Assembly (NCBI GenBank): GCA_025055115.1
Contig: JANWYJ010000008.1
Coordinates: 44,230 to 108,229 of the forward strand
Origin: Gemmata sp.
GTDB taxonomy: Bacteria; Planctomycetota; Planctomycetia; Gemmatales; Gemmataceae
Direction: 5' to 3'
DNA: 64,000 nucleotides
Position numbers and translations under genes: made by a program. The stretch's first letter is position 1. Each line of letters begins with the position of its first letter. Positions 9,839 through 59,692 of this stretch are shown here, in pieces. The notes under the pieces were generated by a model. That model worked only from the letters and a program-made list of their open reading frames with translations. It ran no database searches and was not told the DNA's origin.

Positions 9839-9941
9839 CCTCGCGTTCCGAGTCTTTTGCATTCTGCGACTCACGGATCGAGGTGGGTGGGGGCTGGATT
9901 TCCGGTATCCCTCGCGTTCAGAGTCTTTTGCATTCTGCGAC
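9839..9941. repeat. 32-bp direct repeat, period 71 bp, spanning the hemH stop codon
   Basis: cctcgcgttcAgagtcttttgcattctgcgac (9910-9941) contains the tca stop complement at 9918-9920. The copy at 9839-9870 has tcc at that position. Confidence 0.9.
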
Positions 9942-10988
9942 CGCGGTATTTCCCTGGCTCAGTCCGACGGTGGCGCTTGTGGCCGTCAGTGGGACCGCCA
10001 CCTGCCCTGGGGCACTGTCGGTCAGCCAGCCGTGGCCTTCTTCGCGGAGGATGCGGGCCATAGCGGCGATCCATTGAGGATGATCGTTGAGGCAAGTACC
10101 GTTTTTGAGGTGTTCGCCGCCGGCCTGCTCGAAAACCTCGCGGCTTTCGTGGCCGATTTCGTCGATGGTTTCCAAGCAATCGGCTGTGAAGCCGGGCAGG
10201 GCGACATACACCCGCTTCACCCCTTTTTTGGCCAATTGTTCCAGTACGTCGTCGGTGTAGGGCTTTAACCACGCTGCGCGGCCGAAGCGCGATTGATAGG
10301 TTTGCGTCCACTGCGTTCGCGGCCAGCCCATCCGCTTCACCAAAGCCCGCGTGGTGCGGACCACATGCGTGGCGTAGGGATCGCCACGTTGGGCGTACTT
10401 TTGGGGAATACCGTGATAGCTGATGACAAAATGCTCTGGCTCCCAGGGGAGTTGGGCCAGATCGTCCCGGATCGTCGCTGCGAGGGCCTCCAGATAGGCG
10501 GGATGATCATAGTACGGCGGCACCACGCGCACCGCCGGCACGCGCCGTAGCTGCATCAGTGCTCGGAACAGTGCATCGGTGGCACTGGCAAACGACGTGG
10601 CCGAATATTGCGGGAACATCGGCATGACGATGAGCCGTTCAACCCCGGCATCGACCATTTCGCGAACCACCTGCCGCACCGACGGTTGGCCCACGATCAT
10701 GCCGAAGCGAACGGGATGGTGGGGAAAGTACTCTTGCAGCAATTGCGTTTGTCGTTGCGTGTAATGCAACAGAGGTGAGCCGGTTTTCTCATCCCAAATC
10801 CGGCGGTACTTCGCGGCCGAAGCACCTGAGCGAAACGGTAAGATACGCAAGTACAAAAGGGGCAGCCAGATAAGGCGGGGAACTTCGATCACCCGGGGGT
10901 CCGAGAGGAATTGCCGCAAATAAGGGAAAAGCCCGGCGTAAGTGGGTTTATCCGGGGTACCCAGTTGAATCAGCAGGATTCCGGTCAT
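9918..10988 (-). CDS. hemH: Ferrochelatase
   Basis: MTGILLIQLGTPD..., ISYHGIP and LPGFTADCLETIDEI are ferrochelatase motifs. Start chosen at ATG 10988. About 40 aa of non-conserved C-terminal tail run into a repeat. Confidence 0.9.
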   Translation of the reverse strand: MTGILLIQLGTPDKPTYAGLFPYLRQFLSDPRVIEVPRLIWLPLLYLRILPFRSGASAAKYRRIWDEKTGSPLLHYTQRQTQLLQEYFPHHPVRFGMIVGQPSVRQVVREMVDAGVERLIVMPMFPQYSATSFASATDALFRALMQLRRVPAVRVVPPYYDHPAYLEALAATIRDDLAQLPWEPEHFVISYHGIPQKYAQRGDPYATHVVRTTRALVKRMGWPRTQWTQTYQSRFGRAAWLKPYTDDVLEQLAKKGVKRVYVALPGFTADCLETIDEIGHESREVFEQAGGEHLKNGTCLNDHPQWIAAMARILREEGHGWLTDSAPGQVAVPLTATSATVGLSQGNTAVAECKRL

Positions 10989-11036
10989 GATGCTTCGGTG
11001 CGGGGTGGGCCGGCCCGTTGGCGACAGAGGAAGGAA

Positions 11037-11053
11037 CCGCAAAGATTGCGGTA
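11037..11053. other. 17-bp inverted repeat ACCGCAA-aga-TTGCGGT between the fdxA stop and hemH start
   Basis: Perfect 7-bp arms with flanking AGGA/TCCT partially extending the dyad. Could be a terminator or attenuator hairpin, or an operator. Confidence 0.35.
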
Positions 11054-11127
11054 TCCTTCACTTGTGAAAACTTTACTCTGCCAGCCACGCTGGCCGCAGG
11101 CACGTGCCGATCAACCCCCTCCTGCAA

Positions 11128-11439
11128 CTATTTCTTTTTGCACTGTGGCCCTTCTTTGGGGGATTGCTTTTCGGTGATGTGGGCGTCGCCGCCGGCGGCT
11201 TTCAAGGCGGTGGCTCGCTCCGCGTTCAGTTGAATGTAGCTACTCCACTCCGCGGGCACGTTCGGTTCCGAGTAAATCGCCTCGACGGGGCACTCTGGAA
11301 CGCAGGCTTCACAGTCGATGCAATCGGCCGGGTCGATGTACAACATCATTTCATCTTGATAGAAGCACTCCACCGGGCAAACGACGCAGCAATCGGTATA
11401 CTTGCAATCGTAGCAATTGGCAGTAACAACGTGAGCCAT
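11128..11439 (-). CDS. fdxA: Ferredoxin, FdxA-like 7Fe/8Fe type
   Basis: 103 aa with Cys clusters CYDCKYTDCCVVCPVEC and CIDCEACVPECP. Confidence 0.9.
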   Translation of the reverse strand: MAHVVTANCYDCKYTDCCVVCPVECFYQDEMMLYIDPADCIDCEACVPECPVEAIYSEPNVPAEWSSYIQLNAERATALKAAGGDAHITEKQSPKEGPQCKKK

Positions 11440-11611
11440 GAGTGGCGGATCCTTCTAACGGGACATACGCGGTGTCACGACGAAGAGGTTATCACACCGC
11501 GATCTTACATCAAGTTACACAGCCCCACGGGGGGATTGCCAGAGGCCAGCGCCAATTTTCCTCAACTGAGACGCAATCTCACCGCCTGCCGTGAGTCGCG
11601 CCGATTGCCGG

Positions 11612-13975: not shown

Positions 13976-14049
13976 GGCCGGTTCTCCCGAGGTTCGAGAG
14001 TGAAATTATGTTCATACGGATAGTTTAACCGCGCACCCCCCCCACCACA

Positions 14050-14210
14050 AGTGCAGTTGCCGCATTTCCTGAACAGTTGGGTCGGTTCGAGCTGCGCTGC
14101 CATAGTACAGCTCATCCGCCGAGTGCAGTTGCCGCATTTCCCGAAGAGCTAGGTCGGTTCGAGGATCAGTTGGAGGGTATGTCGACAAATGTCGAGTTGC
14201 AGTTGACGAG
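14050..14210. repeat. 42-bp direct repeat x2 plus a degenerate third copy, period 72-73 bp
   Basis: agtgcagttgccgcatttcc[t/c]gaa...ggtcggttcgag occurs at 14050 and 14122 (38/42 identical). A decayed copy, agttgcagttgacgag, starts at 14195. Confidence 0.85.
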
Positions 14211-14229
14211 TCCGTGGGCAGGAGGGGAA

Positions 14230-15057
14230 TTAACGCCGCGGACGCCGCTTCGGTTGATGAAAAATGGGTAAAAGTTCGTCGATGTCGCGGGGAGTCGGTT
14301 CGGGTTTATCTTCATGCCACGGATCGCGGGTGGGAGCGGCCGACGGTGTGCCCGGCGGGGGGCGGTCGGACAACAGCCAATCGACAAATTGGCCACAATT
14401 CAGATACCAGCATTCGCCGCGGCGGGCGGCTTCACGCACCCGGGCATCGTTGGAGACCACCGTCAGCGATTGGGGGTTGGCGGCCGTCGCGATCCACGTT
14501 TCGATCGCATCGTCTGCGGTTTGGGCGAAGGCGAATTGCACCTGCAAGCCCCGGTGGCGGGTTTGGAGCGTGGGTTCGGGGGCCGATTGGGCGTCGAAGA
14601 CCATGTGGACTTCGGCCCGGTTCTTGAGGTGGTCGGCGATCCAATCGAGCAGGCGCAGCCGAGCGCGAACGAAAGCCGCTGCGGGCATGTCACGCGTGGC
14701 TAACCCCATGGCGTGTAACAAGTTGTAGCCATCGACGAGGAAAGACACAGCAGCACCGACTTTCTCGAGTTCGGTTGCGTCGTCGATCCGTCGAACGAGG
14801 CAAACGACAGGTGGCGGGGGTTCGTTATCCTCCGATTGTCGTGATTGTATCACGCCGCGGCTCACCAGCGGAATGACAGTTGTGAGAAAATCGCCCGGGG
14901 GAGCACCCGCGTCATGCCCTCGCTGTGGGCCGGCTCTGGAGGGTGAAAAGCCGATCGGAACTAGCCTCCGAAAATGCCGCAGGCTGCGTAGCGCGCCACG
15001 CAGCCTTCTGGCGAATCTATCGATAATCGGTCGGAGGATCGACCGTCGGAGCAGCAA
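14230..15057 (-). CDS. NYN/YacP-like RNase domain protein
   Basis: The conserved part starts at VSFLVDGYNLLHAMG...VVSNDARVREAARRGE (GTG at 14748). The Arg-rich 100 aa upstream may not be translated, so the start is uncertain. Confidence 0.7.
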   Translation of the reverse strand: MLLRRSILRPIIDRFARRLRGALRSLRHFRRLVPIGFSPSRAGPQRGHDAGAPPGDFLTTVIPLVSRGVIQSRQSEDNEPPPPVVCLVRRIDDATELEKVGAAVSFLVDGYNLLHAMGLATRDMPAAAFVRARLRLLDWIADHLKNRAEVHMVFDAQSAPEPTLQTRHRGLQVQFAFAQTADDAIETWIATAANPQSLTVVSNDARVREAARRGECWYLNCGQFVDWLLSDRPPPGTPSAAPTRDPWHEDKPEPTPRDIDELLPIFHQPKRRPRR

Positions 15058-15062
15058 GGCGG

Positions 15063-15248
15063 TCAGGGTTGTTCACCGTCTGGGGGCGTTGAGCGATCAA
15101 GAGCCGGGCTGGCGATGCGGTACTTCTCATCCAGCCAGCGGCCCAGATCGATCTTGCGGCACCGGGCCGAGCAAAACGGAAAGTCGGGATATTCCTGCCA
15201 GTTGCCCGGCATAGCCGCATCACAGATCGGACACCGCACTTTACTCAT
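15063..15248 (-). CDS. yacG: DNA gyrase inhibitor YacG (zinc finger)
   Basis: 61 aa. CPICD...FPFCSARCRKIDLGRW is the YacG signature. Confidence 0.8.
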   Translation of the reverse strand: MSKVRCPICDAAMPGNWQEYPDFPFCSARCRKIDLGRWLDEKYRIASPALDRSTPPDGEQP

Positions 15249-15307
15249 CGGTTCGCTCCTGCCCGAACTTCGGACATTCTCCGAATATCCGGAGCAATCC
15301 CGGCGGG

Positions 15308-15631: not shown

Positions 15632-15826
15632 AGGCGTAGGCAACTGACAAGGGTTCAATCGTGGCGCTAGACGCGAAAACCACCCCGTGTGGTCCGCGCC
15701 GTATCGCCCCTTCACCAAGCGAGTTCGACCGATCGACGGCCCCCCTTGAAGGGGTATGGTATTTTTCGTCTGTGCGGGTGTTTCGTTGTTGGTTCTGAAA
15801 CACACATGCATGCGATCGGGGTGCGG

Positions 15827-17724: not shown

Positions 17725-19410
17725 TTAGGCGATCGCACCGACAACGGGTTTCTTCTTGTCGTCGTCATCCAACCGGGTGACCAGTACCTCGGTGGTGAGC
17801 ATCAGCCCAGCGATGCTGGCTGCGTTCTGCAGGGCGTTGCGGGTGACACGCAGCGGGTCGATAATCCCGGCTTTGAACATGTCTTCGTATTCGCCGGTGT
17901 TGGCGTTGTAGCCGATGTTGGGGTTTTTCTCGCCGCGGGCGATCACTTCGGCGGCCACCACAGCTCCATCGGCCCCACCGTTTTCGGCGATCGTGCGAAT
18001 GGGTTTGGCCAGTGCCCGGGCCACGATTTCGGCGCCGACACGTTCATCGTGTTTGAGTTTTTCGGCCAGGGCTTCGACCGTGGGGATGCACCGCAGTAGC
18101 GCCACCCCACCGCCGGGAACGATGCCTTCGGCCACGGCCGCACGCGTAGCGTGTAGGGCATCCTCCACGCGGCCTTTGGTTTGCTTCATTTCCGCCTCGG
18201 TGGACGCACCGACTTTGATGATCGCCACACCGCCGCCGAGTTTGGCGAGCCGTTCGGAGAATTTCTCCTTGTCGTACTCGCTTTCGGTTTGATTCATCTG
18301 CGTGCGGATCGTATCCATGCGGGCTTTGATGGCCGCTTGGCGTTCCTTGTCGGGTTCGACGATGATCGTGGTGCTTTCCTTGTCGACGATGACTTTGTTG
18401 GCCGTGCCGAGCAGTTTGAAGACTTTCGGTTCCGGCCGAGCGCCACGTTGTTGCTCTTTGGCGCTGGGTTCTTCCATGCTGTCGAGGGCGATGCCGCGGT
18501 CTTCGCTGATGAAAGTCCCGCCGGTTAGCACGGCGATGTCTTCCATCATGGCTTTGCGGCGGTCCCCGAAGCCCGGCGATTTGACGGCGCAGACTTCGAG
18601 CAGGCCGCGCAGCCGGTTGACCACGAGGACGGCCAGGGCTTCGCTTTCCACATCATCGGCCACGATCAGAAGCGGCTTGCCGGCGCGGGCGACAGCGTCC
18701 AGCAGCGGCAGCATTTCGCGCACGTTCGACAGTTTCTTTTCGTACAGCAGCACCAGAACGTTCTCTTGCTCCCACTTCAGATCGGGCGTGTTGACGACGA
18801 AGTACGGCGAGATGTAGCCTTTGTCGAACTGCATCCCCTCGACGAATTCCTGCACGGTTTCGGAGGTTTTGCCTTCTTCGACCGTGATGACGCCATCGCG
18901 GCCAACCTTTTCGAAGGCTTCGGCCATCATTTCGCCAATTTTGGGGTCGTTATTGGCCGAAATGGTGGCCACTTGCTTCATTTCATCCTTCTTGGAGACG
19001 GGTTTTTTCAACGTCTCTTCGAGGTATTTGACCGCGGCGGCCACGGCTTTGTCGATGCCGCGCTTGACGGCCATAGGGTTGGCCCCGGCGGTGATATTGC
19101 GCAAGCCCTCTTGGTAGATGGCCAGTGCCAGAACGGTGGCGGTGGTAGTGCCGTCACCAGCAACATCGGAGGTTTTTTGGGCGACGGCGTTGACGAGTTT
19201 GGCCCCCATATTCTCGAAGGGGTCGGCCAGTTCGATTTCCTTGGAGACGGTGACTCCGTCTTTGGTGACGGTGGGTCCGCCGAAGGATTTCTCGATGATG
19301 ACGTTGCGTCCGGTGGGGCCGAGGGTCGAGCCGACGGCGCGGGCGAGTTTTTCCGCACCGGCTAAAAGTTTCTTCCGGGCTTCGTCGGTATAGAGTAATT
19401 GTTTGGCCAT
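17725..19410 (-). CDS. groEL: Chaperonin GroEL (copy 2)
   Basis: 561 aa of GroEL sequence throughout. It has an unusual acidic/basic tail, ...[16 protein letters not shown], with no GGM repeat. Confidence 0.97.
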
Positions 19411-19997: not shown

Positions 19998-21896
<1,899 letters not shown>

Positions 21897-21960: not shown

Positions 21961-24921
21961 ATGATGCGCTGTTGGGGCTTACTGATCGCCTGGGGCTTAT
22001 CGTGGGTGGCGGTGGCGGCCGATCGCACGCCCGCGCCGTTGCCGGCGGAGAAGGCCGCGCGGCAGTCGGTTCTGCCCGATGGCTTCACGATGACGGTCTT
22101 CGCGGCCGAACCAGACGTAACACAACCCATTTCCTTCACCATCGACGCCAAAGGGCGGTTGTGGGTAGCCGAAGCAACCAACTACGGTCAATGGAAACCG
22201 ACGGGGAAAGATCGTGTGGTCATTCTGGAAGAACACCACGGTAAGCTCCGACGCACCCTCTTCTACGAAGGGTTCAACTACATCACCGGGATCGAGGTGG
22301 GCTTTGGCGGGGTGTATGTGATGAGTCCGCCGTGCCTGTACTTTGTGCCGGATCGCAACGGCGACGACCGCCCCGATGGCGAACCCGAAGTACTGTTCGA
22401 CGGTTTCGGCTACAAAGAAAGCCGGCACAACCTCGCCAATGGTTTCACCTGGGGGCCGGATGGCTGGCTGTACGGCGGCCATGGTCGCACCAGTCCTTCT
22501 GATGTGGGCCGCCCTGGCACACCGGCCGATCAGCGCATCCACTGCGACGGCGGCGTTTACCGCATTCACCCCACCCGGCTTGTGTTTGAGAACTTCGCCG
22601 ATGGAACGACCAATCCATGGGGCGTTGACTTCGACGACTACGGCGCCTGTTTCGTTTCCAACTGTGTCAACCCGCACCTCTTCCACATGCTGCAAGGCGG
22701 GCACTATGAACCCTGGCGCAACCGACCCAGCAGCCAATACGCCTACGAACGCCTCCCCACCATCGCCGACCACCTGCATTATCCCGGCGGCGATCTCCGC
22801 GGCGATTTGGGCAAACCCGACACCCTGGCGATGGGTGGCGGGCATGCCCACTGTGGCACGCTCGTTTATCTGGGCGATTCCTTTCCCGCCCGTTATCGCA
22901 ACACGGTGTTCATGTGCAATGTCCACGGTCGCCGTATCAATCACGACATTCTGAAGCGCAAAGGCTCCGGTTACACGGCCAGTCATGCCCCCGATTTCAT
23001 GATTTCCGCCGATCCGTGGTTTATGGGCGTAACACTTCGCACCGGGCCGGACGGCAGCGTTTTTGTCAGCGATTGGTCGGACACCGGGGAATGCCATACC
23101 TATCAACCCGATACCAGCACTGGGCGCATCTACAAGATTCGCTACACCGGAGCTAAACCCCGCGACTTCCCCCCCGACCTCAATCAACTCCACGATGCCG
23201 AACTGGTGCAACTGCAAACGCACCCGAACGATTTCTTCGTCCGCCATGCCCGGCGCATTCTCCAAGAACGCTGTGCTACCCGCGATGCAAAAGCCAATAC
23301 CGCCGTGCACCACGCCTTGGATCGAGCCGTGGATACGCACACCGACGTGCGGCACCGTCTGCGTGCGTTGTGGGCACTGCACGCCACCGGCGGCACCACC
23401 CCGCAGCGGTTGGCCGGCTTGCTCGCCGACCCGTCGGAATATCTGCGCGCCTGGGCGATTCAACTGTTGTGCGAACGTGATACTCCCACCGACGACATCC
23501 TGGCGCAGTTCGCAACGCTCGCAAAAACCGACCCCTCGCCCCTCGTCCGCCTGTACCTCGCCAGTGCCTTACAACGGCTTCCTGTGGAGAAACGCTGGCC
23601 CATTCTGGAACAGCTCCTCCGCCACGCCGACGATGCTACCGACGCTAACATTCCCCTGATGCTCTGGTACGCCATCGAACCGGCGGTGCCGACCGATCCG
23701 GCTCGCGCCTTGGCCCTCGCCGTGTCCGGCCGCCTACCACGCGTACGCGCCTTCATCGCCCGCCGGGCCGCCGAACATGCTGTCAGCCAGGGCGCGAAAG
23801 CCAACTTCACATCACTAATGACTGTACTGAAGATTGCCGACGACGCCGTACAACGCGATCTGCTCGACGGCACACTGACTGGTCTTCGTGGGCAGAAGAA
23901 CCTTCCCATGCCCCCCGAGTGGCCCGCAACCTACGCCCGGCTCCGCGGCCATTCCGATGCCGTGATCCGCGAACACGCGGTACGCCTGGCACTGATCTTC
24001 GGCGATCCTCAGGCGGTCAACGACCTGGTGCGGCTGGTGAAAAATACCGCCGCCGCGCCGGCACAGCGCGTCGCGGCGATTGCCGCGTTGGTCGAATACC
24101 AAGCCCAAGACTTCGATCGCGTTCTTCACGAACAACTGACCGATACCGCCACCCGTCAGGCCGCGATTCGGGGACTAGCGGCGTACACCCACCCGGATAC
24201 GCCACAAAAGCTCCTGGCGGTCTACCCCCAACTGACCTCTGAGGAAAAGCAAGACGCCATCGCCACGCTTTCGGCACGGGCCGAATATGCATTGGCCCTT
24301 CTGGAGGCGGTTGCAGCGAACAAACTGCCACGCCGCGACATCTCGGCGTTCGCGGCTCGGCAAATGTTCGCGCTTAACAATGCCCAACTCACCGACCGGT
24401 TGAAAGCCGTCTGGGGGGAGGTTCGCACCACCGCCGCCGACAAGCAGAAACTCATTGCCCGCTACAAAAACCAGCTCACCGAGGCCGTTCTGAAGAACGC
24501 CAACCGCGCCAACGGCCGCCTGTTGTTCATGCAGCACTGCCAACAATGCCACAAGCTTTTCGGCGAAGGCCACACAATCGGCCCCGATCTGACGGGTGGC
24601 AACCGCCACAATCTCGACTATCTGCTGGCTAACCTGGTTGATCCCAGTGCGGAAGTGGGACGGGATTTCCGCATGTCGGTGGTGCGAACGGTCGATGAAC
24701 GCACCATCACCGGCCTGTTGGTGGAACGCACGGCAGCCCGGCTGGTCATTCAAACCGCGACCGACAAAATCGTCGTCGCCGCCCGCGATGTGGCCAGCGT
24801 CACGGATTCGCCCCTGTCGATCATGCCCGAAGGCTTGTTGGAGAAGCTCACCCGCGAAGAAGTTCGCGATCTGATTGCTTATCTGCAAAGCCCGGTGCAG
24901 GTAGAGCTACCACCGCGATAG
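21961..24921 (+). CDS. PVC-type heme-binding CxxCH protein (membrane-bound dehydrogenase-like domain + HEAT repeats + C-terminal cytochrome c domain)
   Basis: 986 aa with a signal peptide, an N-terminal beta-propeller-like dehydrogenase region, HEAT-like repeats and the motif CQQCHKLFGEGHTIGPDLTG. Confidence 0.85.
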   Translation: MMRCWGLLIAWGLSWVAVAADRTPAPLPAEKAARQSVLPDGFTMTVFAAEPDVTQPISFTIDAKGRLWVAEATNYGQWKPTGKDRVVILEEHHGKLRRTLFYEGFNYITGIEVGFGGVYVMSPPCLYFVPDRNGDDRPDGEPEVLFDGFGYKESRHNLANGFTWGPDGWLYGGHGRTSPSDVGRPGTPADQRIHCDGGVYRIHPTRLVFENFADGTTNPWGVDFDDYGACFVSNCVNPHLFHMLQGGHYEPWRNRPSSQYAYERLPTIADHLHYPGGDLRGDLGKPDTLAMGGGHAHCGTLVYLGDSFPARYRNTVFMCNVHGRRINHDILKRKGSGYTASHAPDFMISADPWFMGVTLRTGPDGSVFVSDWSDTGECHTYQPDTSTGRIYKIRYTGAKPRDFPPDLNQLHDAELVQLQTHPNDFFVRHARRILQERCATRDAKANTAVHHALDRAVDTHTDVRHRLRALWALHATGGTTPQRLAGLLADPSEYLRAWAIQLLCERDTPTDDILAQFATLAKTDPSPLVRLYLASALQRLPVEKRWPILEQLLRHADDATDANIPLMLWYAIEPAVPTDPARALALAVSGRLPRVRAFIARRAAEHAVSQGAKANFTSLMTVLKIADDAVQRDLLDGTLTGLRGQKNLPMPPEWPATYARLRGHSDAVIREHAVRLALIFGDPQAVNDLVRLVKNTAAAPAQRVAAIAALVEYQAQDFDRVLHEQLTDTATRQAAIRGLAAYTHPDTPQKLLAVYPQLTSEEKQDAIATLSARAEYALALLEAVAANKLPRRDISAFAARQMFALNNAQLTDRLKAVWGEVRTTAADKQKLIARYKNQLTEAVLKNANRANGRLLFMQHCQQCHKLFGEGHTIGPDLTGGNRHNLDYLLANLVDPSAEVGRDFRMSVVRTVDERTITGLLVERTAARLVIQTATDKIVVAARDVASVTDSPLSIMPEGLLEKLTREEVRDLIAYLQSPVQVELPPR

Positions 24922-25017
24922 AACCGGTTGCACCCCCCCTCGGAGACGACATTGCCGAAGCCCTAGCTTCCGACGGTGCTACCGCCGCGATAGAACCGGG
25001 GGCAACCCTCCTAGGGG
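24906..25017. repeat. Direct repeat, period 72 bp, spanning the stop codon of the 21961-24921 CDS
   Basis: gctaccAccgcgatagaaccgg at 24906 includes the tag stop at 24919-24921. The copy gctaccGccgcgatagaaccgg lies at 24978. Weaker similarity continues for about 16 more nt. Confidence 0.9.
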
Positions 25018-25123
25018 CCACAAGCCCATCGGGAGGACATACCTTTCCTCCGTGTTGTCCCTGGTGGTCACGGGTGGTGCCGAAAGCTCAGGGGGTGGAA
25101 ACAACGTGGCTTCTGGGCGTTGG

Positions 25124-25177
25124 GTCGAGATGGCGACGATGGGGGCAACCGTCGAGACGGCGACGATGGGGGCAACC
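25124..25177. repeat. 27-bp tandem duplication
   Basis: gtcgaga[t/c]ggcgacgatgggggcaacc x2, 26/27 identical. Confidence 0.9.
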
Positions 25178-25358
25178 GTCGATCACTCCCCGGATGCGAC
25201 TCCGTCGAGCACGATGGGTTGGAGGAACTCCAGGGTAACACGCCTCCACTTCAGCCTTAGTGGAATGGGGCCGTGTGCGGCCGTCAATCAGTTCCCTGAT
25301 CACGAAGTGTTAGATAACCACCTCAGCCTCGGTAGAATGAGGCCGTGGCCGGGGCGAT

Positions 25359-26578: not shown

Positions 26579-26766
26579 GGTGTGCTGTTTGTGCCGGGGG
26601 GCTGGTGTCGGTCAAAGCAATCAGGCCACCACCAAGAACTGGTCGTCTCAGGTGTGGTGTAGTGTTTGTGCCCCGTCACACCACCACCAACCGGTCGTCG
26701 CTGGTGTAGTGTTTGTGTCCCGTCAGGGGTGGTGTTTGTGTCCCGTCAGGTGTGGTGTTTGGGCGC
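26577..26766. repeat. GT-rich repeat array starting at the protoglobin stop codon
   Basis: 4-5 degenerate copies of ggtgt(g)gtgtttgtg[c/t]cc(c)gtca, with two longer units at 26624-26677 and 26678-26724. It is flanked by gccggggg(g)ctgg motifs. Confidence 0.8.
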
Positions 26767-26858
26767 CGGGGGCTGGCTGGTCGGCCCCCGGCGCCGGTTG
26801 CGGGAACTCGGGTTGTTGCTACGGAATGAAGCTGAGCCGACGTTCTGCGGCCCGACTT

Positions 26859-26979
26859 AGCGTTTGATGCTCTTGAGCGTTTGATGCTCTTCAGTAGGCT
26901 TTCAACTAGTCCACACCGTCCCAGGGTGTACCCGGCACCGTGTGGCTAGCGTTTGATGCTCTTCAGCAGGCTTTCGACT
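26859..26979. repeat. Three copies of the 3' end of the 26946-27611 CDS (periods 17 and 72 bp)
   Basis: agcgtttgatgctctt occurs at 26859, 26876 and 26948. The 26876 copy matches 30/32 nt of the true gene end, which includes the stop complement cta at 26946-26948. Confidence 0.9.
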
Positions 26980-27611: not shown

Positions 27612-27676
27612 GGCAGGCCCTCCCGTGATGAAGGAATCATCCTCGATCGCGATGGCTTGATTTCGTGGTGGAGGAA

Positions 27677-28810
27677 TCAATCCCGATCGAGTTGCTTGAG
27701 TTCCCGTTCGAGTCGCTTTTGCAATTCGTCAAGTTCGCGTTGCAGTTGGGGTAAGGCGTTGGGGAAACCGGGCAAGTCGTTGGGTACCAGCACGCCAGCT
27801 TCGGGCAATTCCACGTCTTTGATTTCGACCTTCTTGCCCTTGCGCAACACGACGACCGTGAATTTTTCACCGGCTTTCGCTTCGTTGATCCGGCGGGCGA
27901 ATTCATCCGGATCGTTGCTCACCGGCTTGCCGGCGAATTCCAGGATGATGTCGTTGGCTTTCAGTCCCACTTTCTCCGCTACGGTGTTGGGAATCACCGA
28001 GGAAACGACAATCCCGGTATTGGGTTCCAAACCCAGTTGTTCAGCGGCCACCGCCGGGACACGTTCCATGCGGATGCCGAAGCGAACCCGTTCTGCCGGC
28101 CGAGCCACATCAGGGCCGATCGGATCGGGGAAATTGGGAGGCATTGGCAACAGCCGCGGCAAACGACCTGCACCAGCCGCTTTGAGCATCAATTCTTGCG
28201 ATTCGGCCAGCAGTTTCCGCGCTTCTGGGTCGCGGGGATTGCGCATCAGCAGTTCGGTGGCTTTCCGCCGCAATTCCATCGCTCTGTTGAAGCCGGGAAC
28301 GTCGATACCACCAATGATGCCGAAATCGCCCATACCCGGATCGGGCAGAATCGGTAGCGGCAGATCGGGCACGAAGGGCCGCGGACGACGGTTGTTCGGG
28401 TTGGGTTGTGGCTCGGGTTGCGGTTCGGGCTTGGGTTTGGCGAGCGATCGGCCGGCGATTGCCATTTCGATCGCTAACAATTCCTTAGTAACTCGATCAA
28501 CATTCTCGCCTTTACGGGCCGCAGCATCGACCGCATCGCGCAGGGCTTGTAATTCCGGCGGTACGGTGCCCGGTTGAACATTCGGCAGCACTTTCTCGAA
28601 GGCTTCGAGAGCTTTGGTGATCTCATCAACATTCGCCCCACGTTGGGAATCGGCCTCCAGCGCTTCGCGCAGCGCGGTCAGATCGACCGGTTTGTTGGCC
28701 GTCGCTTTGGGCGCGGGCTGGGGTTGTTCGGCGGCCAGCGTCCATCCGACCGCGGCCAGCACACCCATGACCAAGCTCGAAATCCCGACTATTAAGCCTT
28801 TCCGAACCAT
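27677..28810 (-). CDS. Secreted or anchored PDZ domain protein
   Basis: N-terminal TM/signal segment, the same helical module as the downstream gene, a Pro-rich linker and a C-terminal PDZ (GIVVSSVIPNTVAEKVGLKANDIILEFAGKPV). GAGGAGG precedes the ATGs at 28819 and 28810. Confidence 0.75.
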   Translation of the reverse strand: MVRKGLIVGISSLVMGVLAAVGWTLAAEQPQPAPKATANKPVDLTALREALEADSQRGANVDEITKALEAFEKVLPNVQPGTVPPELQALRDAVDAAARKGENVDRVTKELLAIEMAIAGRSLAKPKPEPQPEPQPNPNNRRPRPFVPDLPLPILPDPGMGDFGIIGGIDVPGFNRAMELRRKATELLMRNPRDPEARKLLAESQELMLKAAGAGRLPRLLPMPPNFPDPIGPDVARPAERVRFGIRMERVPAVAAEQLGLEPNTGIVVSSVIPNTVAEKVGLKANDIILEFAGKPVSNDPDEFARRINEAKAGEKFTVVVLRKGKKVEIKDVELPEAGVLVPNDLPGFPNALPQLQRELDELQKRLERELKQLDRD

Positions 28811-29233: not shown

Positions 29234-29293
29234 CTAGTAGCTCTGGCGGCGCATCGCGGTGTACTAGTAGCTCTGGCGGTGCATCGCGGTGTA
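29234..29293. repeat. 30-bp tandem duplication spanning the stop codon of the 29264-29824 CDS
   Basis: ctagtagctctggcgg[c/t]gcatcgcggtgta x2, 29/30 identical. The downstream copy keeps an in-frame stop. Confidence 0.95.
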
Positions 29294-29824
29294 GCCGGCG
29301 ATGACTTCGGCTCGGTTCATCACCACAAGTGTCCAAATTCCGAACACCAGGCCGAGGAAACAGCATGGACTCAAGCACGGGATGAAGGAAAGAACCGCTC
29401 CGGTCTTGACCAACCCGGGACTGGTCAGCTTGAGCAGATTGACACCCGCCAGAAGGATGATCAGCGACAGCAACGCCGTGAGAATGGCCTGGGGAATGAT
29501 GATGGGTTTGATCATCTTTCCCACCTTCTCCAGAATGTCGAGCTGCTCTTGTTTTTGGTTGGCGGGAATGTTGGGGTCGTCTTCGATCTTTTTCATCTCC
29601 TTTTCCCACAATTCATCGAATTGGTGAAATTGAACTGCGTTGACGGCCGCAAGAACAAAGCCCAGCACCCCTGTGATGAGTAGTCCGATGGCGGGGCCAA
29701 GGACACGATTTCTGGCCGCGGCGATGGTTTGTTGATCGGCTTCGGGGTCGTCGTAGCGATCGTCGAGAGGGTCGTTGTTGCGGTCGCCGTGGCGTTGGTA
29801 GTCATCATCGGGATAGTTCGACAT
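29264..29824 (-). CDS. Hypothetical membrane protein (acidic N-terminus, 3-4 TM segments)
   Basis: Start at ATG 29824 (MSNYPDDDYQRHGDRNNDP...). Hydrophobic segments include GPAIGLLITGVLGFVLAAV, IIIPQAILTALLSLIILLAGV and CCFLGLVFGIWTLVV. Confidence 0.6.
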   Translation of the reverse strand: MSNYPDDDYQRHGDRNNDPLDDRYDDPEADQQTIAAARNRVLGPAIGLLITGVLGFVLAAVNAVQFHQFDELWEKEMKKIEDDPNIPANQKQEQLDILEKVGKMIKPIIIPQAILTALLSLIILLAGVNLLKLTSPGLVKTGAVLSFIPCLSPCCFLGLVFGIWTLVVMNRAEVIAGYTAMHRQSY

Positions 29825-29901
29825 AGTGCCCTGATTGGTAAGAGTTCTGCGTAGGTGATGGGGCGACGTTGTGTGGTTTCCCTCAGGTTGTGTGGTTTCC
29901 C

Positions 29902-30414
29902 TCAGTATGTGATCAGGCTGAAGACATCCCGGCCCGCGAGCTGTTGCGCGCCGTGGAGAAAGGATAATTCGATGAGGAACGCACAGCCCACCACTACGCC
30001 CCCCGATTCTTCGACCAGTTTGCACGCGGCGGCCATAGTCCCCCCGGTGGCTAGTACGTCATCGACCAACAGCACGCGTAATCCCGGCGTGATGGCGTTG
30101 GCGTGGACGTGCAATTCGGCACTGCCGTATTCGAGGTCGTATTTGTAGCTACGGGTGGCGCCCGGCAGCTTGCCCGGCTTGCGCAGGGGAATGAGAGGTT
30201 TTTTCATCTGCAAGGCCATGGGGGCGGCGAAGAGAAATCCGCGTGCTTCCGCAGCCGCAATCGCCTCGACCGGCGCGGCCTGATAATGCCGGCACAGGGC
30301 ATCGACCGCGTAGGCGTAGGCCTCCGGGTGGGCCATCAGTGGCATGATGTCTTTGAAGAGTACGCCGGGTTTGGGAAAATCCGGCACATCGCGAATGTAC
30401 GCCTTGAGGTCCAT
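29902..30414 (-). CDS. apt: Adenine phosphoribosyltransferase
   Basis: 170 aa with IRDVPDFPKPGVLFKDI and the PRPP-binding VLLVDDVLATGGT. Confidence 0.93.
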   Translation of the reverse strand: MDLKAYIRDVPDFPKPGVLFKDIMPLMAHPEAYAYAVDALCRHYQAAPVEAIAAAEARGFLFAAPMALQMKKPLIPLRKPGKLPGATRSYKYDLEYGSAELHVHANAITPGLRVLLVDDVLATGGTMAAACKLVEESGGVVVGCAFLIELSFLHGAQQLAGRDVFSLITY

Positions 30415-30502: not shown

Positions 30503-30982
30503 ATGAACCTGCACATTCGCCGGGCAACGGTGGCCGATTTGCCAGTCTTGGTGGCTTTCAATCAAGCCATTGCTTGGGAAACGGAACACAAACAGCTCGA
30601 TGAACAGATTGTGACCACCGGGGTCCGAGCGGTTTTCGACAACCCGGCTCGGGGATTCTATACCGTAGCGGAACGCGACGGTGCGGTGGTTGGCCAAATT
30701 ATGGTCACCTACGAATGGAGCGATTGGCGCAACGGCTGGTTTTGGTGGATTCAAAGTGTCTATGTCCGGGAGGATGCCCGGCGCAGCGGTGTATTTCGTG
30801 CCCTCTATGAAGCCATCCGCGACCAGGCGGCCCGCGATCCGACAGTGATCGGTCTGCGCCTGTACTTCGACATCGCCAATACCCGCGCTCAGGCTACCTA
30901 CCGGGCTATGGGCATGCGCGATACCACCTATGGCATCATGGAAGTCTATCCCCTCCCGGGGCGCGAATCGCACATTCGTTGA
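30503..30982 (+). CDS. GNAT family N-acetyltransferase
   Basis: 159 aa with a GNAT core, including the acetyl-CoA motif VYVREDARRSGVFRALYEAI. Confidence 0.85.
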   Translation: MNLHIRRATVADLPVLVAFNQAIAWETEHKQLDEQIVTTGVRAVFDNPARGFYTVAERDGAVVGQIMVTYEWSDWRNGWFWWIQSVYVREDARRSGVFRALYEAIRDQAARDPTVIGLRLYFDIANTRAQATYRAMGMRDTTYGIMEVYPLPGRESHIR

Positions 30983-31061
30983 CGGCAGAAGCCGCTAACC
31001 GACGAAACTTTCGCTGCTATCGCGGCCGCGAATCGCACATTCGTTGACGGCAGGAGCCGCT
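30963..31061. repeat. 34-bp direct repeat (period 65) spanning the GNAT stop codon
   Basis: gcgaatcgcacattcgttgacggcag[a/g]agccgct occurs at 30963 and 31028, 33/34 identical. The tga stop at 30980-30982 lies inside the first copy. Confidence 0.95.
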
Positions 31062-31233
31062 TGTGCCGACCAGCGTCGGGTTGTGCCGACCAGCGTCGGG
31101 TTGTGCCGACCAGCGTCGGGTTGTGCCGACCAGCGTCGGGCGGAGTTGGTCGCTACCGCCCAAGCTTGGTTTGGATAGCTCTCCATAAGCTTGTTGGTGC
31201 CGACCAGCGTCGGGCGGAGTTGGTCGCTACCGC
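31061..31233. repeat. Perfect 20-bp tandem repeat x4 with a hairpin core, plus a dispersed fifth copy 74 bp downstream
   Basis: ttgtgccgaccagcgtcggg is repeated x4 (31061-31140), each with CCGAC-cagc-GTCGG. A 19-bp tail cggagttggtcgctaccgc follows. One unit plus the tail recurs at 31197-31233. Confidence 0.95.
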
Positions 31234-31777: not shown

Positions 31778-32320
31778 GTGTGGACATCGAACAGTACGAC
31801 GGTGATTGGTGTTTTCTCCATTCGCGAGGAGATGGAACAAGCCATCCGCGAACTGCGTGCGGCAGGATTCTCGGAAGATAGTATCGGGATGATCAGTCGC
31901 GACCCGGAAGGCCGGCTGGTCAGTGAAGGTGGTGGTCAAACATTGGTCAGCGAAGGAGCTGCGGCCGGCGCTGTGGTGGGAGCCAGTGCTGGGGCATTGG
32001 TAGGATGGGGGATGGTCAGCGGTACGATTCCGGTGATCGGTCCGGTGTTGGCCCTTGGTACACTGGGTACCATTCTGGTGAACGCGGCCGGCGGGGCTAC
32101 GATTCTGGGCATTGTGGGAGCTTTGGTCGGTCTGGGTATTCCCGAAGATGAAGCCAAGTTCTACGAAGCGGAAGTCCAAGGCGGCCGCTTTTTGGTCACG
32201 GTGGATGCCAGAGATCGCCAAACTGAGGCCTGGACAATCCTCAATCGGTCGGGGGGCTACAATCATGCGACCCAGACTCACGATCGCAGCAACCGACCGA
32301 GTACATCAGTGGCCAACTGA
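31778..32320 (+). CDS. General-stress-like protein with a central glycine-zipper hydrophobic segment
   Basis: 180 aa. VIGVFSIREEMEQAIRELRAAGFSEDSIGMISRD and EDEAKFYEAEVQGGRFLVTVDA flank a Gly/Ala/Val-rich stretch. It resembles YflT/DUF1269-type stress proteins. Confidence 0.6.
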   Translation: MWTSNSTTVIGVFSIREEMEQAIRELRAAGFSEDSIGMISRDPEGRLVSEGGGQTLVSEGAAAGAVVGASAGALVGWGMVSGTIPVIGPVLALGTLGTILVNAAGGATILGIVGALVGLGIPEDEAKFYEAEVQGGRFLVTVDARDRQTEAWTILNRSGGYNHATQTHDRSNRPSTSVAN

Positions 32321-32433
32321 CCAGAAACTTTTACATCAGTGGCCAACTGACCAGAAACTTTGCAACTGTGACCGACCAAGCTTTCGACATCGTCCGGGGT
32401 GATGCACCACAGTGGCCAACTGCCCGGAAACTT
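32302..32433. repeat. Perfect 30-bp tandem duplication spanning a stop codon, plus a degenerate third copy 73 bp on
   Basis: tacatcagtggccaactgaccagaaacttt occurs at 32302-32331 and 32332-32361, 30/30 identical. The tga at 32318-32320 is the CDS stop. A third copy, cagtggccaactgcccggaaactt, starts at 32410. Confidence 0.95.
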
Positions 32434-32679
32434 GGCAACGGTTGCCGTTAGCCCCACCCCAGACGGACCACCTGCGACGTTCAACCACCATCGCTTGTTG
32501 CGAGATACGATTGCGTTCGGGGTGGATTTCGTGGTGTTCGTTTCGCCTGCCCTGTCCTGTATGGGCTGTTGAGATTCCGGAGCACAGGTGCTTTCACGGC
32601 AGCACCGAGATACCAACCACGATAACGTTTCAACCACCCGAGCTAATGGCGATGGTTCCTAGTGGGTGTGACAATCCAC

Positions 32680-39118: not shown

Positions 39119-39709
39119 ATGACGACCGACCACGGCAAGCGATACACGACAAATATCATGAACGTTATAACCAAAACTGATCCGGCGCAACAGGACCGCT
39201 TGTGGCTCGGCTATCATCCGCGAGCGGCCATTCCTTGGATGGTGACGGTCGGAGCGGTTTCTTTGCTGATTTGGACGGGAAAATGGTATCTCGACGAGCT
39301 TTCCGATCTGGCCGAAAAGATCGGGGCACTGGCCTTGTTCGCGTTGGCGTGGGGGGTGTGGCCACTCTTAGGGGCGATCATTCTGTATCGTACAGTTGCC
39401 TACACGTATCGGCTCACCGATCGCGCGCTGTACTATGATTTTGGTTTTTGGTATGCTCCACAGCCTCCGGTCTGGCTGCAGGACATCCTCGCGGTTCGCT
39501 GGGGGGGCGGATGGCTCAGTTGCGCGTTGGGAGTCGGCTGGATCGAGGTGCGGACAGCCGATCGTGTGGTTCGTTGGCCAGGAGTGCGCCATCCCCAGCG
39601 AGTGGCGGAAGCTATTCGCGCGGCTGTCGCCGCGGTCCAACGTGCCGACACCCGAATACCGCAAGTCGTTGCCACCCCAACCAATCGCGACGATCTGTTC
39701 AGAATGTGA
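39119..39709 (+). CDS. Membrane protein with a bacterial PH (YdbS/YdbT-like) domain
   Basis: Two TM segments followed by YRLTDRALYYDFG...IEVRTADRVVRWPGVRHPQRVAEAIR. An alternative start lies at ATG 39158. Confidence 0.65.
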   Translation: MTTDHGKRYTTNIMNVITKTDPAQQDRLWLGYHPRAAIPWMVTVGAVSLLIWTGKWYLDELSDLAEKIGALALFALAWGVWPLLGAIILYRTVAYTYRLTDRALYYDFGFWYAPQPPVWLQDILAVRWGGGWLSCALGVGWIEVRTADRVVRWPGVRHPQRVAEAIRAAVAAVQRADTRIPQVVATPTNRDDLFRM

Positions 39710-39885
39710 ACTCGGCCGTGGTGCGGAAGCGGTGCTCCCTGATTCTCCGCGAACTGTTCAGAAGGTGAACGGGGCAGTGGTGGGGGAGCGGTGCTCCGTG
39801 ACGCTCTGCGCGCCGAGAAGTCGCCGGCGTCAAAGACGGCTTGTGCCGGTGGTGGGGGAGCGGTGCTCCGTCACTCTCTGCGCGG
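39695..39885. repeat. 59-bp tandem repeat starting in the last 15 nt of the PH-domain CDS, plus a partial third copy 72 bp on
   Basis: ctgttcagaa[t/g]gtgaac...gtggtg[c/g]gg[a/g]agcggtgctcc... occurs at 39695 and 39754. The segment gtggtgggggagcggtgctccgt recurs at 39777 and 39849. Confidence 0.9.
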
Positions 39886-55482: not shown

Positions 55483-55509
55483 GGTACAGTGATGCGGGCG
55501 AAACTATCA

Positions 55510-55521
55510 GGTTCATGAACC
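55510..55521. promoter_or_regulatory. Perfect 12-bp palindrome GGTTCATGAACC in a divergent promoter region
   Basis: Located 28 nt upstream of the 55482 start on the minus strand. A 12-bp tandem gtgttcctgtaa x2 lies at 55678-55701 in the same spacer. Confidence 0.25.
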
Positions 55522-55825
55522 AGTTCTGAGGTTCCCACTGCCAGTGAACGAACGTGCCGAACGAGCGCGGCCGCCGACCATCCGTGGGGGAACCATACCA
55601 AAACGGTTTACTAATGGCAGCGCCCAGCGGAAACCCTCGACGGTTCCGCCGACGCATGCCCTCATCGCTGCGCCTGCGTGTTCCTGTAAGTGTTCCTGTA
55701 ACGATTCGGGCGGCGATGGCGGAAAGCCTATGTGCAAATTTGCCGCGGCGCGTATAACGAAGCGCCCCGGTGCTATTCACAACCCAACGTTGCGCGCCGG
55801 TGTCCCTCTTCGCGGAGATGCACCC

Positions 55826-57964: not shown

Positions 57965-57996
57965 GCCACTAGATAGACTAGACGAGAAGTGAGCCA
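57957..57996. repeat. 12-bp duplication of the S46 peptidase 3' end including the stop
   Basis: agaagtgagcca occurs at 57957-57968 (tga stop at 57962-57964) and at 57985-57996. actaga x2 lies between the copies. Confidence 0.8.
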
Positions 57997-58029
57997 TCAG
58001 CCCTGGGGGCTGCGTACAATTTCTCGGCG

Positions 58030-58056
58030 GGGGGCGCAAGCCCCCTGCTCTGTTTT
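58030..58056 (+). terminator. Intrinsic terminator candidate downstream of the S46 peptidase gene
   Basis: GGGGGC-gcaa-GCCCCC (a GNRA tetraloop) is followed by tgctcTGTTTT. Confidence 0.5.
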
Positions 58057-58118
58057 GCCCCGATCTGCAACAACCCACGATTGCCGTGTCTGGGCACGAA
58101 TTGAGGGGAGAGAACACC

Positions 58119-59537
58119 ATGGCCGACGTTCGCGAAGTTCCGCTGCTGGTGATCGGCGGTGGACCCGGCGGATACCCGGCGGCACTGCATGCTGCCGACC
58201 ACGGTTTGAAGGTCACTCTGGTCGATGAAAGCCCGCAATTGGGTGGGGTGTGCCTCAATCGGGGCTGCATTCCTTCCAAAGCCCTGTTACACACTGCCAA
58301 AATCATTCGCGAAGCCCACGAAATGGCCCAGTACGGTGTCACTTTCGGCCAACCGCAGATCGATCTGGCGAAGCTGCGCGATTTTGTGCAAGCCAAGGTG
58401 ATCGGCAAGTTGACCAGTGGCATTCACCAACTGACCAAAGGCCGGGGTGTGGACGTCGTCACCGGGCGTGCGGTTTTTACCTCGCCGCATACGGTGGAAG
58501 TCACCGGCCCAGTGCCGCAGACGATTCGTTTCGACAAATGCATCATCGCCACAGGCTCGGTGCCCGTCATTCCCAAGCCCTGGCAGATCAACGACCAACG
58601 GGTGATGGATAGCACCGCGGCGCTATTGCTGCCCGAGATTCCCTCGAAACTGCTGGTGATCGGCGGTGGCTACATTGGCTTGGAACTGGGCAGTGTCTAT
58701 GCCGCGTTGGGCAGCCGTGTGACGGTGGTGGAAGCGTTAGAACGGATTCTGTTCATGGCCGACAAAGACCTGGTCGAACCGCTCGAAAAACGCTTGCGGG
58801 CCGAATTCGAGGCGATTTACACCAACACCCAAGTGATAGGACTCGAAGCCACCCCCGACGGTATTGCGGTCCGCTTGGAAGGCTCGGGCGTGCCTACCTC
58901 CCTGGTGTTCGATCGTGTGTTGGTGGCGGTGGGGCGGCGGCCCAATTCCGCTGGCTTGGGATTGGAAAAAGCCGGCGTGCGGGTGAACGAAAAAGGCTAC
59001 ATTCCCATCGACAAACAGCGGCGAACGAACGTACCCCATATCTTCGCCATTGGCGATGTTGGTGAAGAACCGGCCTTAGCACACAAAGCGACTGCCGAAG
59101 CCCGGGTGGCGGTTGAGGTCATTCTCGGCGAGCCGGCGGAGTGGAATCCGCGGTGTATTCCTGCGGTCATTTTCACCGATCCAGAAATTGCCTGGGCCGG
59201 GCTGACGCAAATGGAAGCGGAGAAAGCCAACATCCCCCATGAGGTTCTCAGCTTTCCCTGGGCGGCCAGCGGCCGCGCCGTGACGATCGCTCGCACCGAG
59301 GGACGCACCAAGATGATCGTGGAACCAGAAACCAAGCGGATTTTGGGTGTTGGTATTGTGGGCGCTGGAGCCGGAGAGATGATCGCCGAAGGGGTGTTGG
59401 CCATTGAGATGGGCGCAGTAGCCCGCGACGTGCTGGAAAGCATTCACCCTCATCCGACTCTCAGCGAAACGGTCATGGAGGCTGCCGAGTTGGCCTACGG
59501 GGCGGCGACCCACATGGCCAAACCCCGCAAGCGCTAG
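58119..59537 (+). CDS. lpdA: Dihydrolipoyl dehydrogenase (E3)
   Basis: FAD motif VIGGGPGGY, redox disulfide GGVCLNRGCIPSK and C-terminal HPHPTLSE. Start at ATG 58119. Confidence 0.95.
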   Translation: MADVREVPLLVIGGGPGGYPAALHAADHGLKVTLVDESPQLGGVCLNRGCIPSKALLHTAKIIREAHEMAQYGVTFGQPQIDLAKLRDFVQAKVIGKLTSGIHQLTKGRGVDVVTGRAVFTSPHTVEVTGPVPQTIRFDKCIIATGSVPVIPKPWQINDQRVMDSTAALLLPEIPSKLLVIGGGYIGLELGSVYAALGSRVTVVEALERILFMADKDLVEPLEKRLRAEFEAIYTNTQVIGLEATPDGIAVRLEGSGVPTSLVFDRVLVAVGRRPNSAGLGLEKAGVRVNEKGYIPIDKQRRTNVPHIFAIGDVGEEPALAHKATAEARVAVEVILGEPAEWNPRCIPAVIFTDPEIAWAGLTQMEAEKANIPHEVLSFPWAASGRAVTIARTEGRTKMIVEPETKRILGVGIVGAGAGEMIAEGVLAIEMGAVARDVLESIHPHPTLSETVMEAAELAYGAATHMAKPRKR

Positions 59538-59692
59538 CGGCAGCGGTGGCGGTTATTGCCACTCAAACGCAGCCCGCAACCTCCAAACGCGGCCCGCAAC
59601 CCCGGCGGCCAGATTGCGAACCAGCGCTAGCGGCAGCGGTGGCGGTTATTGCCACCGTCATCGGGTGGCGACCCACATGGCCAAAGCCCGCA
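59497..59692. repeat. Duplicated and reordered copies of the lpdA 3' end
   Basis: Segment Y, agcgctagcggcagcggtggcggttattgccac, occurs at 59530 and 59623 (33/33). Segment X, ...ggcgacccacatggccaaa[c/g]cccgcaag, occurs at 59497 and 59659. caaacgc[a/g]gcccgcaacc x2 lies at 59564-59601. Confidence 0.9.

Follow-up and report, generated by a model that had tools for sequence, protein, structure and literature searches.

Short spacer-like insertions with long target duplications on the 3' side of genes in a Gemmata sp. genome

Why does the end of one gene after another, stop codon included, reappear a short distance downstream in a stretch of planctomycete DNA? The stretch in question, hereafter the window, comprises 64,000 nt of contig JANWYJ010000008.1 (positions 44,230-108,229, forward strand) from a metagenome-assembled genome (MAG) of Gemmata sp., GCA_025055115.1. 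It consists of core housekeeping DNA with three GroEL genes, DnaJ/GrpE, PriA, SMC, pyruvate dehydrogenase, accBC and hemH, and has no Rfam match or tRNA. A preliminary description listed ten genes with such repeats and saw in them a duplication of gene ends, caused by frequent tandem duplication or coupled to termination. We find this interpretation only partly right. The window carries spacer-like insertions with long target duplications, accompanied by exact tandem duplications, and selection has apparently filtered both to the 3' side of genes.

Repeats were located with repeat finders and a seed-and-extend scan of our own, and the null for their number was the window sequence shuffled inside 100-nt blocks. 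Direct repeats in the window are far beyond chance, with 42 repeat segments against 0-3 after shuffling. Nine of the ten listed gene-end repeats lie where they had been reported. The tenth, at the S46 peptidase gene, shrinks to a 12-nt match (57956 / 57984) and is a weak case, as by our estimate chance alone should give about 0.8 matches of this kind in the window. The list also grows, by units beginning at 2480, 4716, 9629, 14050, 25246, 31123, 32337, 39777 and 63082 and by tandems over the stops of the PDZ protease and phosphoribosyltransferase genes.

Repeat pairs around an unrelated middle segment

When the surroundings of each repeat pair are compared, 15 events of the window prove to be not tandem copies but what we denote R-S-R units: two direct-repeat copies (R) enclose a middle segment (S), and the period is counted from R start to R start. 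S resembles neither the sequence before the first copy (R1) nor the sequence after the second (R2), which excludes simple tandem duplication for these 15 units. R measures 30-43 nt (mode 36-38 nt) and S 27-42 nt after subtraction of internal tandems (mode 35-37 nt). The high tandem-duplication rate offered earlier as a neutral explanation does not describe such events; they are ~36-nt insertions with a ~36-nt target duplication, laid out on a 72-nt ruler.

Ten simple units have periods of 71-74 nt, with 1, 5, 2 and 2 events at 71, 72, 73 and 74 nt, respectively (P ~5e-10 for 10 of 24 events landing in one 4-nt bin). Periods of 66-70 and 75-78 nt are without any event in the window's spectrum at the main score threshold, and a lower threshold adds one low-scoring segment of a GT-rich array at 70 nt. 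The 71-nt unit is 9836-9870 / 9907-9941 (R 35 nt, copies 94% identical; S 36 nt), whose copy 9907-9941 holds the hemH stop codon (9918-9920, minus strand). Five units share the period of 72 nt: 14050-14163 (R 42 nt, 90%; S 30 nt), between the stop of a NYN-domain gene and the start of priA; 24906-25015 (R 38 nt, 84%; S 34 nt), where R1 holds the stop of a DUF7133-cytochrome c (CxxCH) gene and R2 begins at 24978; 25246-25347 (R 30 nt, 83%; S 42 nt), 12 nt past the Rrf2 stop; 26876-26907 / 26948-26979 (R 32 nt, 94%; S 40 nt, with a strong hairpin), at a 221-aa gene on the minus strand, the coding sequence at 26946; and 39777-39812 / 39849-39884 (R 36 nt, 94%; S 36 nt), which follows a 59-nt tandem. 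Periods of 73 nt are found at 2480-2588 (R 36 nt, 81%; S 37 nt), 48 nt past the stop of an Omp28-like gene (633-2432, plus strand), and at 32337-32374 / 32410-32447 (R 38 nt, 84%; S 35 nt), after a 30-nt tandem at a YflT-like gene. The two 74-nt units are 4716-4827 (R 38 nt, 92%; S 36 nt), 25 nt past an AAA-ATPase stop in the convergent spacer before GroEL, and 31123-31159 / 31197-31233 (R 37 nt, 100%; S 37 nt).

Three compound units reduce to similar values. Downstream of hemH, the S of 9629-9771 (R 41 nt, 78%) is 61 nt long, i.e. 34 nt plus an internal exact 27-nt tandem (9677-9733); its period of 102 nt is 75 nt without the tandem. Two units are nested at the 3' end of lpdA. Inner unit B (59530-59562 / 59623-59655; R 33 nt, 100%) has an S of 60 nt, made up of 40 nt and a 20-nt tandem, and a period of 93 nt, or 73 nt without the tandem. 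Outer unit A (59499-59531 / 59662-59694; R 33 nt, 91%) has a period of 163 nt, which is 70 nt plus the 93 nt of inner B. Two outliers complete the set. The GNAT unit, 30959-31061 (R 38 nt, 95%; S 27 nt), has a period of 65 nt; its R1 holds the GNAT stop (30980-30982) and its R2 begins at 31024. The unit 63082-63203 (R 42-43 nt, S 37 nt), in the convergent spacer after the gene 61546-63036, has a period of 79-80 nt and scores lower solely because of one indel.

The identity of R copies ranges from 100% down to ~80%, so the window must contain events of many ages. R and S are specific to their loci and unrelated between them, which agrees with the preliminary description in that we deal with a process and not with a dispersed element. 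Repetitive extragenic palindromes and bacterial interspersed mosaic elements (REP/BIME), miniature inverted-repeat transposable elements and mycobacterial interspersed repetitive units (MIRU) were all rejected, since no family sequence is common to R or to S across loci.

A further ~21 events in the window are two-copy tandem duplications of 12-59 nt. Almost all have exactly 2.0 copies, with no junction microhomology and no extension past 2.0 copies. Several lie over stop codons: a 40-nt tandem (27624-27703, 2.0 copies, 80%) spans that of the PDZ protease (27677-27679, minus strand), a 30-nt tandem (29234-29293, 2.0 copies, 96%) that of a 186-aa gene (29264-29824, minus strand), and a perfect 30-nt tandem (32302-32361) that of the YflT-like gene (31778-32320). 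An exact 19-nt tandem (29868-29905) overlaps the stop of the phosphoribosyltransferase gene (29902-30414, minus strand). The 59-nt tandem (39691-39808, ~83%) spans the stop at 39707-39709 of a coding sequence previously named PH-domain, for which we obtained no Pfam match. Other tandems adjoin R-S-R units. An exact 17-nt tandem (26859-26891) ends at the start of R1 of the 26876 unit, with a third, partial copy at 26859, and an exact array of four 20-nt copies (31061-31140) runs into the 31123 unit. Boundaries of independent events coincide within 0-2 nt at 59530/59531, 31061/31123, 26876, 59563 and 9730; one repeat starts at the end of another, or tandems begin or end at R|S junctions. Together with the exact two-copy tandems, these coincidences suggest reusable nick sites.

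Insertions relative to sister genomes and to genes

Syntenic relatives of the window (L002, L006 and L011) were reached via the PDZ-protease gene, their protein identity to the window being 84-89%; L012, from the same MAG as L002, was added via a ferrochelatase scan. The collections offered no sister strain for scoring presence and absence of the window's own events; the nearest relatives have 84-90% protein identity, and the best match in a scan of Joint Genome Institute (JGI) metagenomes has 75% identity. At the 26876 unit, R is the conserved 3' end of the 221-aa gene, of which every relative has one copy. The 14050 site has one R copy in L012, and the spacer with the 4716 unit is 72 nt longer in the window than in L012. 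Downstream of GNAT the spacer is ~280 nt long in the window versus 36-67 nt in relatives; once both R-S-R units and the array of four 20-nt copies are taken out, what is left has the native length and a similar sequence (the strands of the GNAT and YflT genes were fixed by Pfam). The window's units are absent from the relatives, which hold a few events of their own. In L006, a clean R+S insertion of 76 nt occupies a site that is empty in the window, L002 and L011. A 75-nt unit lies over the Rrf2 stop in L002, and L002 and L011 have in common one 78-nt unit; L006 has neither of these two. Since sister genomes have a single R copy where the window has two, and one of them shows the clean 76-nt insertion, the R-S-R units are, on these sequence comparisons, lineage-specific insertions with target-site duplication.

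The same spacers can be struck more than once. The convergent spacer between Rrf2 and DUF7133 was hit independently in several sister genomes (window 24922-25358, L002 13201-13304, L011 13228-13337): it contains two R-S-R units and a 27-nt tandem in the window, one own unit in L002, and one other that is common to L002 and L011. The spacer between YflT and M28 was struck in both the window and L006. Two strains of 99.1% identity, L173 (11471-11573) and L172 (14932-14983), differ in a 51-nt exact tandem that begins 16 nt past the stop of a tilS-like gene and is present in L173 only; the duplication process is hence ongoing and polymorphic.

We also took period spectra of 80 genome loci of Gemmataceae (1.1 Mb) and 80 metagenome loci (0.48 Mb). 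The 72-nt class is absent from these ~1.6 Mb of other planctomycete loci, with the exception of one lineage represented by loci L038 and L175 (CAZFDX010000311.1; assembly GCA_964518325.1), a distant Zavarzinella-like MAG with 50% G+C. There, three units lie within 10 kb, with R/S of 37/35, 33/39 and 39/32 nt and periods of 72, 72 and 71 nt. The first spans a stop codon, and a separate pair with a 47-nt period spans the hemH stop. Contigs from at least five independent data sets have these units fixed; they occur in an NCBI MAG, in Logan assemblies from four runs and in two assemblies by JGI. A patchy distribution in two distant lineages is what would be expected of a dispensable enzyme system. 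The record itself is mislabelled: its title is 'uncultured Alcaligenaceae bacterium', but its genes are Gemmataceae-like (its hemH and that of Zavarzinella formosa are 75% identical). The match list includes several more 'binchicken' records whose labels seem wrong in the same way.

As to position, 11 of the window's 36 events span a stop codon, none spans a start codon and two lie inside genes, both being multiples of three in length. The other 23 are wholly intergenic, with nine in convergent spacers and 14 in same-direction spacers, mostly on the 3'-proximal side; divergent spacers (869 nt in total) contain none. The earlier remark that no duplications cross start codons therefore holds, while the view that gene ends as such are duplicated does not, given the 23 intergenic events. 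A share of ~30% for stop-spanning events would be expected from random integration followed by selection, with R of ~36 nt and native spacers of 100-300 nt. For the 11:0 asymmetry between stops and starts (binomial p ~5e-4) to arise, either decoy starts and displaced promoters must be selected against or the process must have a genuine bias to 3' ends. The overall pattern fits retention of insertions where they are harmless.

Events over a stop codon are tolerated, since the copy that stays joined to the gene retains a stop or forms one anew. In this respect the preliminary description was right. Such an event leaves the protein whole or almost so, but in several genes, three of them in the window, it altered the C-terminus. 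In the DUF7133-cytochrome c gene, homology to three relatives stops exactly at 24906, the start of R1, which implies that the ancestral C-terminus was replaced; the protein ends in ...VQVELPPR* in the window (24906-24921) and in ...VQVEWPKSEKPAEK* in the relatives. The live stop of lpdA (59535-59537) lies in inserted DNA and the protein ends in ...AKPRKR*; the native ...AKARK-TGA survives past the second copy of outer unit A. In the 221-aa gene (minus strand), the stop TAG (26946-26948) is formed at the junction of R2 and S. A similar change is seen outside the window, where hemH of the Zavarzinella-like lineage (L175 8170-8253) has a 28-residue tail and a 91%-identical sister is without it.

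Candidate agents of the insertions

Which process doubles some 36 nt of target around an insert of the same size? Several known systems offer partial likenesses. An ordinary CRISPR array also consists of repeat-spacer-repeat with a ~72-nt period and unique spacers. Sites in the window, however, have two repeats only, which are unrelated between sites and derive in several cases from coding sequence, and they are without a leader, adjacent cas genes or a match to an Rfam CRISPR repeat family. A canonical array was rejected, as neither the window nor any fetched locus has three or more repeats in a row at equal spacing. Transposons and casposons likewise double their target around the insert, implying staggered strand transfer. 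Their target duplications are 2-15 bp long (14-15 bp in casposons). The duplication in the window is two to ten times longer, and the insert is ~36 nt, non-coding and without terminal inverted repeats common to its copies; on these defining features the transposon reading was rejected. Attachment-site (att) duplications and repeats of diversity-generating retroelements (DGR) resemble our units in placing a copy of a gene 3' end downstream of the gene, but the copies here are only 27-42 nt apart and most units touch no gene. The att-site reading fails on defining features, with no integrase in the window. The template/variable repeats of DGRs were rejected as well: the window has no reverse transcriptase, the repeats measure 30-43 nt where DGR repeats have ~100 bp or more, and the mismatches are of all types rather than adenine-specific. 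Slipped-strand duplications and minisatellites of the MIRU type are alike in forming short spacer duplications, some over stop codons, whose copy number varies between strains, as between L173 and L172. MIRU copies, however, have a family sequence and slippage leaves microhomology, and neither yields an unrelated 36-nt middle or a 72-nt ruler. Slippage was rejected for the 15 units on account of the unrelated middle, and for the ~21 tandems on account of their exact 2.0 copies without extension.

The composition of S narrows its possible sources. In codon-likeness S equals intergenic DNA and lies three standard deviations below random fragments of host genes. Under a third-order Markov model of the window, S scores 0.0125 bits/nt, host fragments 0.049 +/- 0.015 and shuffled S -0.060 +/- 0.020; its oligonucleotide usage is at z = +3.7 versus shuffled sequence and at z = -2.4 versus average host DNA. 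Judged by composition, S is hence real and structured DNA and not untemplated filler; nor does it sample the host chromosome at random. Such a composition would fit fragments captured from non-host or non-coding DNA. Similarity of S segments to one another, or a common terminal motif, is not above chance. As individual observations, CCAAGCTT opens two S segments (31160-31196 and 32375-32409), CCTTGG stands near the start of three others (9670, 63124 and L038 887), CTTGG lies close to the start of four S segments and AAGCTT is present in several; by our estimate these counts are borderline relative to chance. They may mean nothing, or hint at a processing motif.

The comparisons above show the structure of the units, their ruler, their insertion relative to sister genomes and their positional pattern; what follows on the enzyme, on where S comes from and on how R-S-R units relate to tandems is inferred. 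We favor, with a probability of roughly 0.45, a Cas1-Cas2-type integrase that would act at non-CRISPR sites with low sequence specificity and would create single-spacer "neo-CRISPR" units. We favor it because the R-S-R geometry is the geometry of CRISPR spacer acquisition; to our knowledge, spacer integration by Cas1-Cas2 is the only process with a ~36-nt duplication around a ~36-nt insert. The chromosome would be opened at the target with a ~36-nt stagger, a pre-existing DNA fragment of ~36 nt (S) would enter the opening, and gap filling would copy the 36-nt target (R) to both sides of S. A ~36-nt duplication around a ~36-nt insert implies two strand transfers ~36 nt apart, then gap filling. 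The exact tandems would be target duplications without insert, perhaps products of events that used the same reusable nick sites and were aborted or received no fragment. Purifying selection would retain events downstream of genes and across stops, where the gene-proximal copy closes the frame, and events across starts, in promoters or inside genes would be lost.

The literature on CRISPR in Gemmataceae yielded nothing usable. Off-target integration by Cas1-Cas2 has been described to generate new repeat-spacer-repeat loci in E. coli (Nivala et al. 2018, cited in PMC6698737; bioRxiv 10.1101/148544). As far as that account outlines them, such loci and our units agree in several respects: a short unrelated segment sits in ordinary chromosomal DNA, a target duplication of ruler length surrounds it, and the repeats differ between sites; in the window both repeat and insert are ~36 nt, as in many natural CRISPR arrays. 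A duplication of roughly constant CRISPR-repeat length around the insert is indeed seen in 15 units of the window and three in L038, and the insert is spacer-like in length and unrelated to its locus and to other inserts. Set against the same outline, our units differ in having no target motif and no linked cas gene or array within the 64 kb, in never exceeding one spacer, in a far higher density (~15 per 64 kb of core genome), in a looser repeat (30-43 nt) and in being accompanied by many insert-less exact duplications.

Several further points weigh against a Cas1-Cas2-type agent. Firstly, neither the window nor the 182 fetched loci contain a cas gene, reverse transcriptase, transposase or CRISPR array. 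Secondly, no donor or protospacer was found for S: a BLAST comparison of every S with the phages of GenBank and the plasmids of PLSDB gave no match, nor did a scan of six 24-26-mers from S against IMG/VR, and blastn-short against the window and 1.8 Mb of fetched related DNA returned self or orthologous copies only. Thirdly, R boundaries in the window have no motif, the 9.3 bits reached with optimised orientation comparing with 7.5-9.8 bits at random-site controls, from only 21 sites; off-target sites in E. coli reportedly resemble the leader-repeat junction. Moreover, the length of R is more variable than a strict ruler would allow, and a longer R goes with a shorter S, so that 33/40, 32/40 and 42/30 still total 72-73 nt. 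A fixed total length with free partition between R and S was rejected as an explanation, the effect being largely, not fully, accounted for by eroded R ends. No site grew past one spacer by re-duplicating the same R, and at lpdA and GNAT, where events are nested, each has an R sequence of its own. Finally, ~15 events per 64 kb is far above any natural frequency of off-target integration of which we know a report.

A scheme without Cas proteins is possible, although we consider it rather unlikely. A nuclease or integrase would make staggered breaks at reusable sites behind genes, and end joining of the Ku/LigD type would fill the overhangs; direct rejoining would produce an exact tandem, and capture of a stray fragment an R-S-R unit. 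One scheme would thereby cover both classes, and it accords well with tandems of exactly 2.0 copies without microhomology, with the common boundaries of independent events, and with the lack of a target motif and of any cas gene in view. However, capture at random should not produce S segments with a mode of 35-37 nt, and R is limited to 30-43 nt only when an insert is present, insert-less duplications ranging from 12 to 59 nt. We also know of no nuclease that leaves overhangs of ~36 nt.

Replication errors, with slippage responsible for tandems and template switching out and back for R-S-R units, are improbable in our opinion. In their favor, many short tandems lie in the same spacers, and a 51-nt duplication polymorphic at 99.1% identity shows a high ongoing rate. 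Yet slippage needs and leaves microhomology at the junction and the copies here are exact 2.0x. Template switching should produce no fixed period of 72 nt and should leave a donor of S close by, but neither strand of the 64-kb window contains one, even for units with 100% identical R copies. A direct or inverted copy from close by was rejected, with no similarity to S in the +/-150 nt context on either strand, and snap-back priming at R|S junctions is not significant (P = 0.19).

Still less probable is a function at gene 3' ends, in which the repeats would serve as terminators, 3' untranslated region (3' UTR) structure or alternative C-termini, coupled to termination of transcription or translation. 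Events do cluster just past stops, with 11 spanning one, the same convergent spacers were struck independently in sister genomes, some C-termini were rewritten, and three units fold well (z = -3.7, -3.2 and -2.5). Most R, S and R-S-R folds, however, are no better than shuffled, only two of 16 S segments fold well (for which S was rejected as a terminator hairpin), conservation of sequence or structure is absent both between loci and in relatives, and copies decay to ~80% identity. The positional pattern is, besides, what selection against harmful insertions leaves. The coupling to termination or to 3'-UTR structure that the preliminary description had considered as an alternative thus finds no support in the folding z-scores, which are mostly unremarkable.

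An artefact of metagenome assembly, through k-mer overlap duplication or serial strain bubbles, might be suspected in a MAG contig with R of ~36-37 nt, resembling a k-1 overlap for k = 37, and is ruled out by R copies that differ by up to 19% where identical ones would be expected and by recovery through different assemblers and samples (the same units stand in L001, a second assembly of the window's strain with 99.98% identity, and those of L038 recur in the NCBI MAG, four Logan runs and two JGI assemblies), with reading frames that stay closed in a biologically sensible way.

The divergence of repeat copies gives a rough estimate of about one 72-nt insertion for every hundred substitutions in spacer DNA. 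If a Cas1-Cas2-type integrase is responsible, this would be the first natural genome with off-target spacer integration as a major mutational force rather than a laboratory curiosity. The genome would then reveal the raw material of new CRISPR arrays and allow the cost of an adaptation module to be quantified, and the enlarged intergenic spacers and rapidly changing protein C-termini of these bacteria would be explained. If there is no such integrase, the 36+36 ruler points to an unknown DNA-insertion enzyme. A broader proposal, tentative and on balance doubtful, is that some Gemmataceae possess a previously undescribed, array-independent insertion-duplication machinery, which would cut with a ~36-nt stagger at reusable sites behind transcription units, paste in ~36-nt fragments and continually rewrite 3' UTRs and C-termini; its agent may be a stand-alone Cas1-like integrase or something unrelated.

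Other repeats in the window and in related loci

Some repeats do not belong to the classes above. The GT-rich array at 26579-26771, which begins at the protoglobin stop, has unit spacings of ~77, 47-52, 23 and 23 nt and looks like a mix of a possible old R-S-R unit and later short tandem amplification. At L080 19902-20010, among the related loci, a hairpin cluster of the REP/BIME kind (GCAGGCTAAAGCCTGC in alternating orientation) has a 75-nt period and identical copies; it is a separate phenomenon that mimics an R-S-R unit. Finally, three GroEL paralogues lie inside 17 kb of the window (4994-6631, 17725-19410 and 19998-21731), with DnaJ and GrpE between them, and the repeat 5706-5775 / 20755-20824 is a shared internal GroEL segment that reflects paralogy only.

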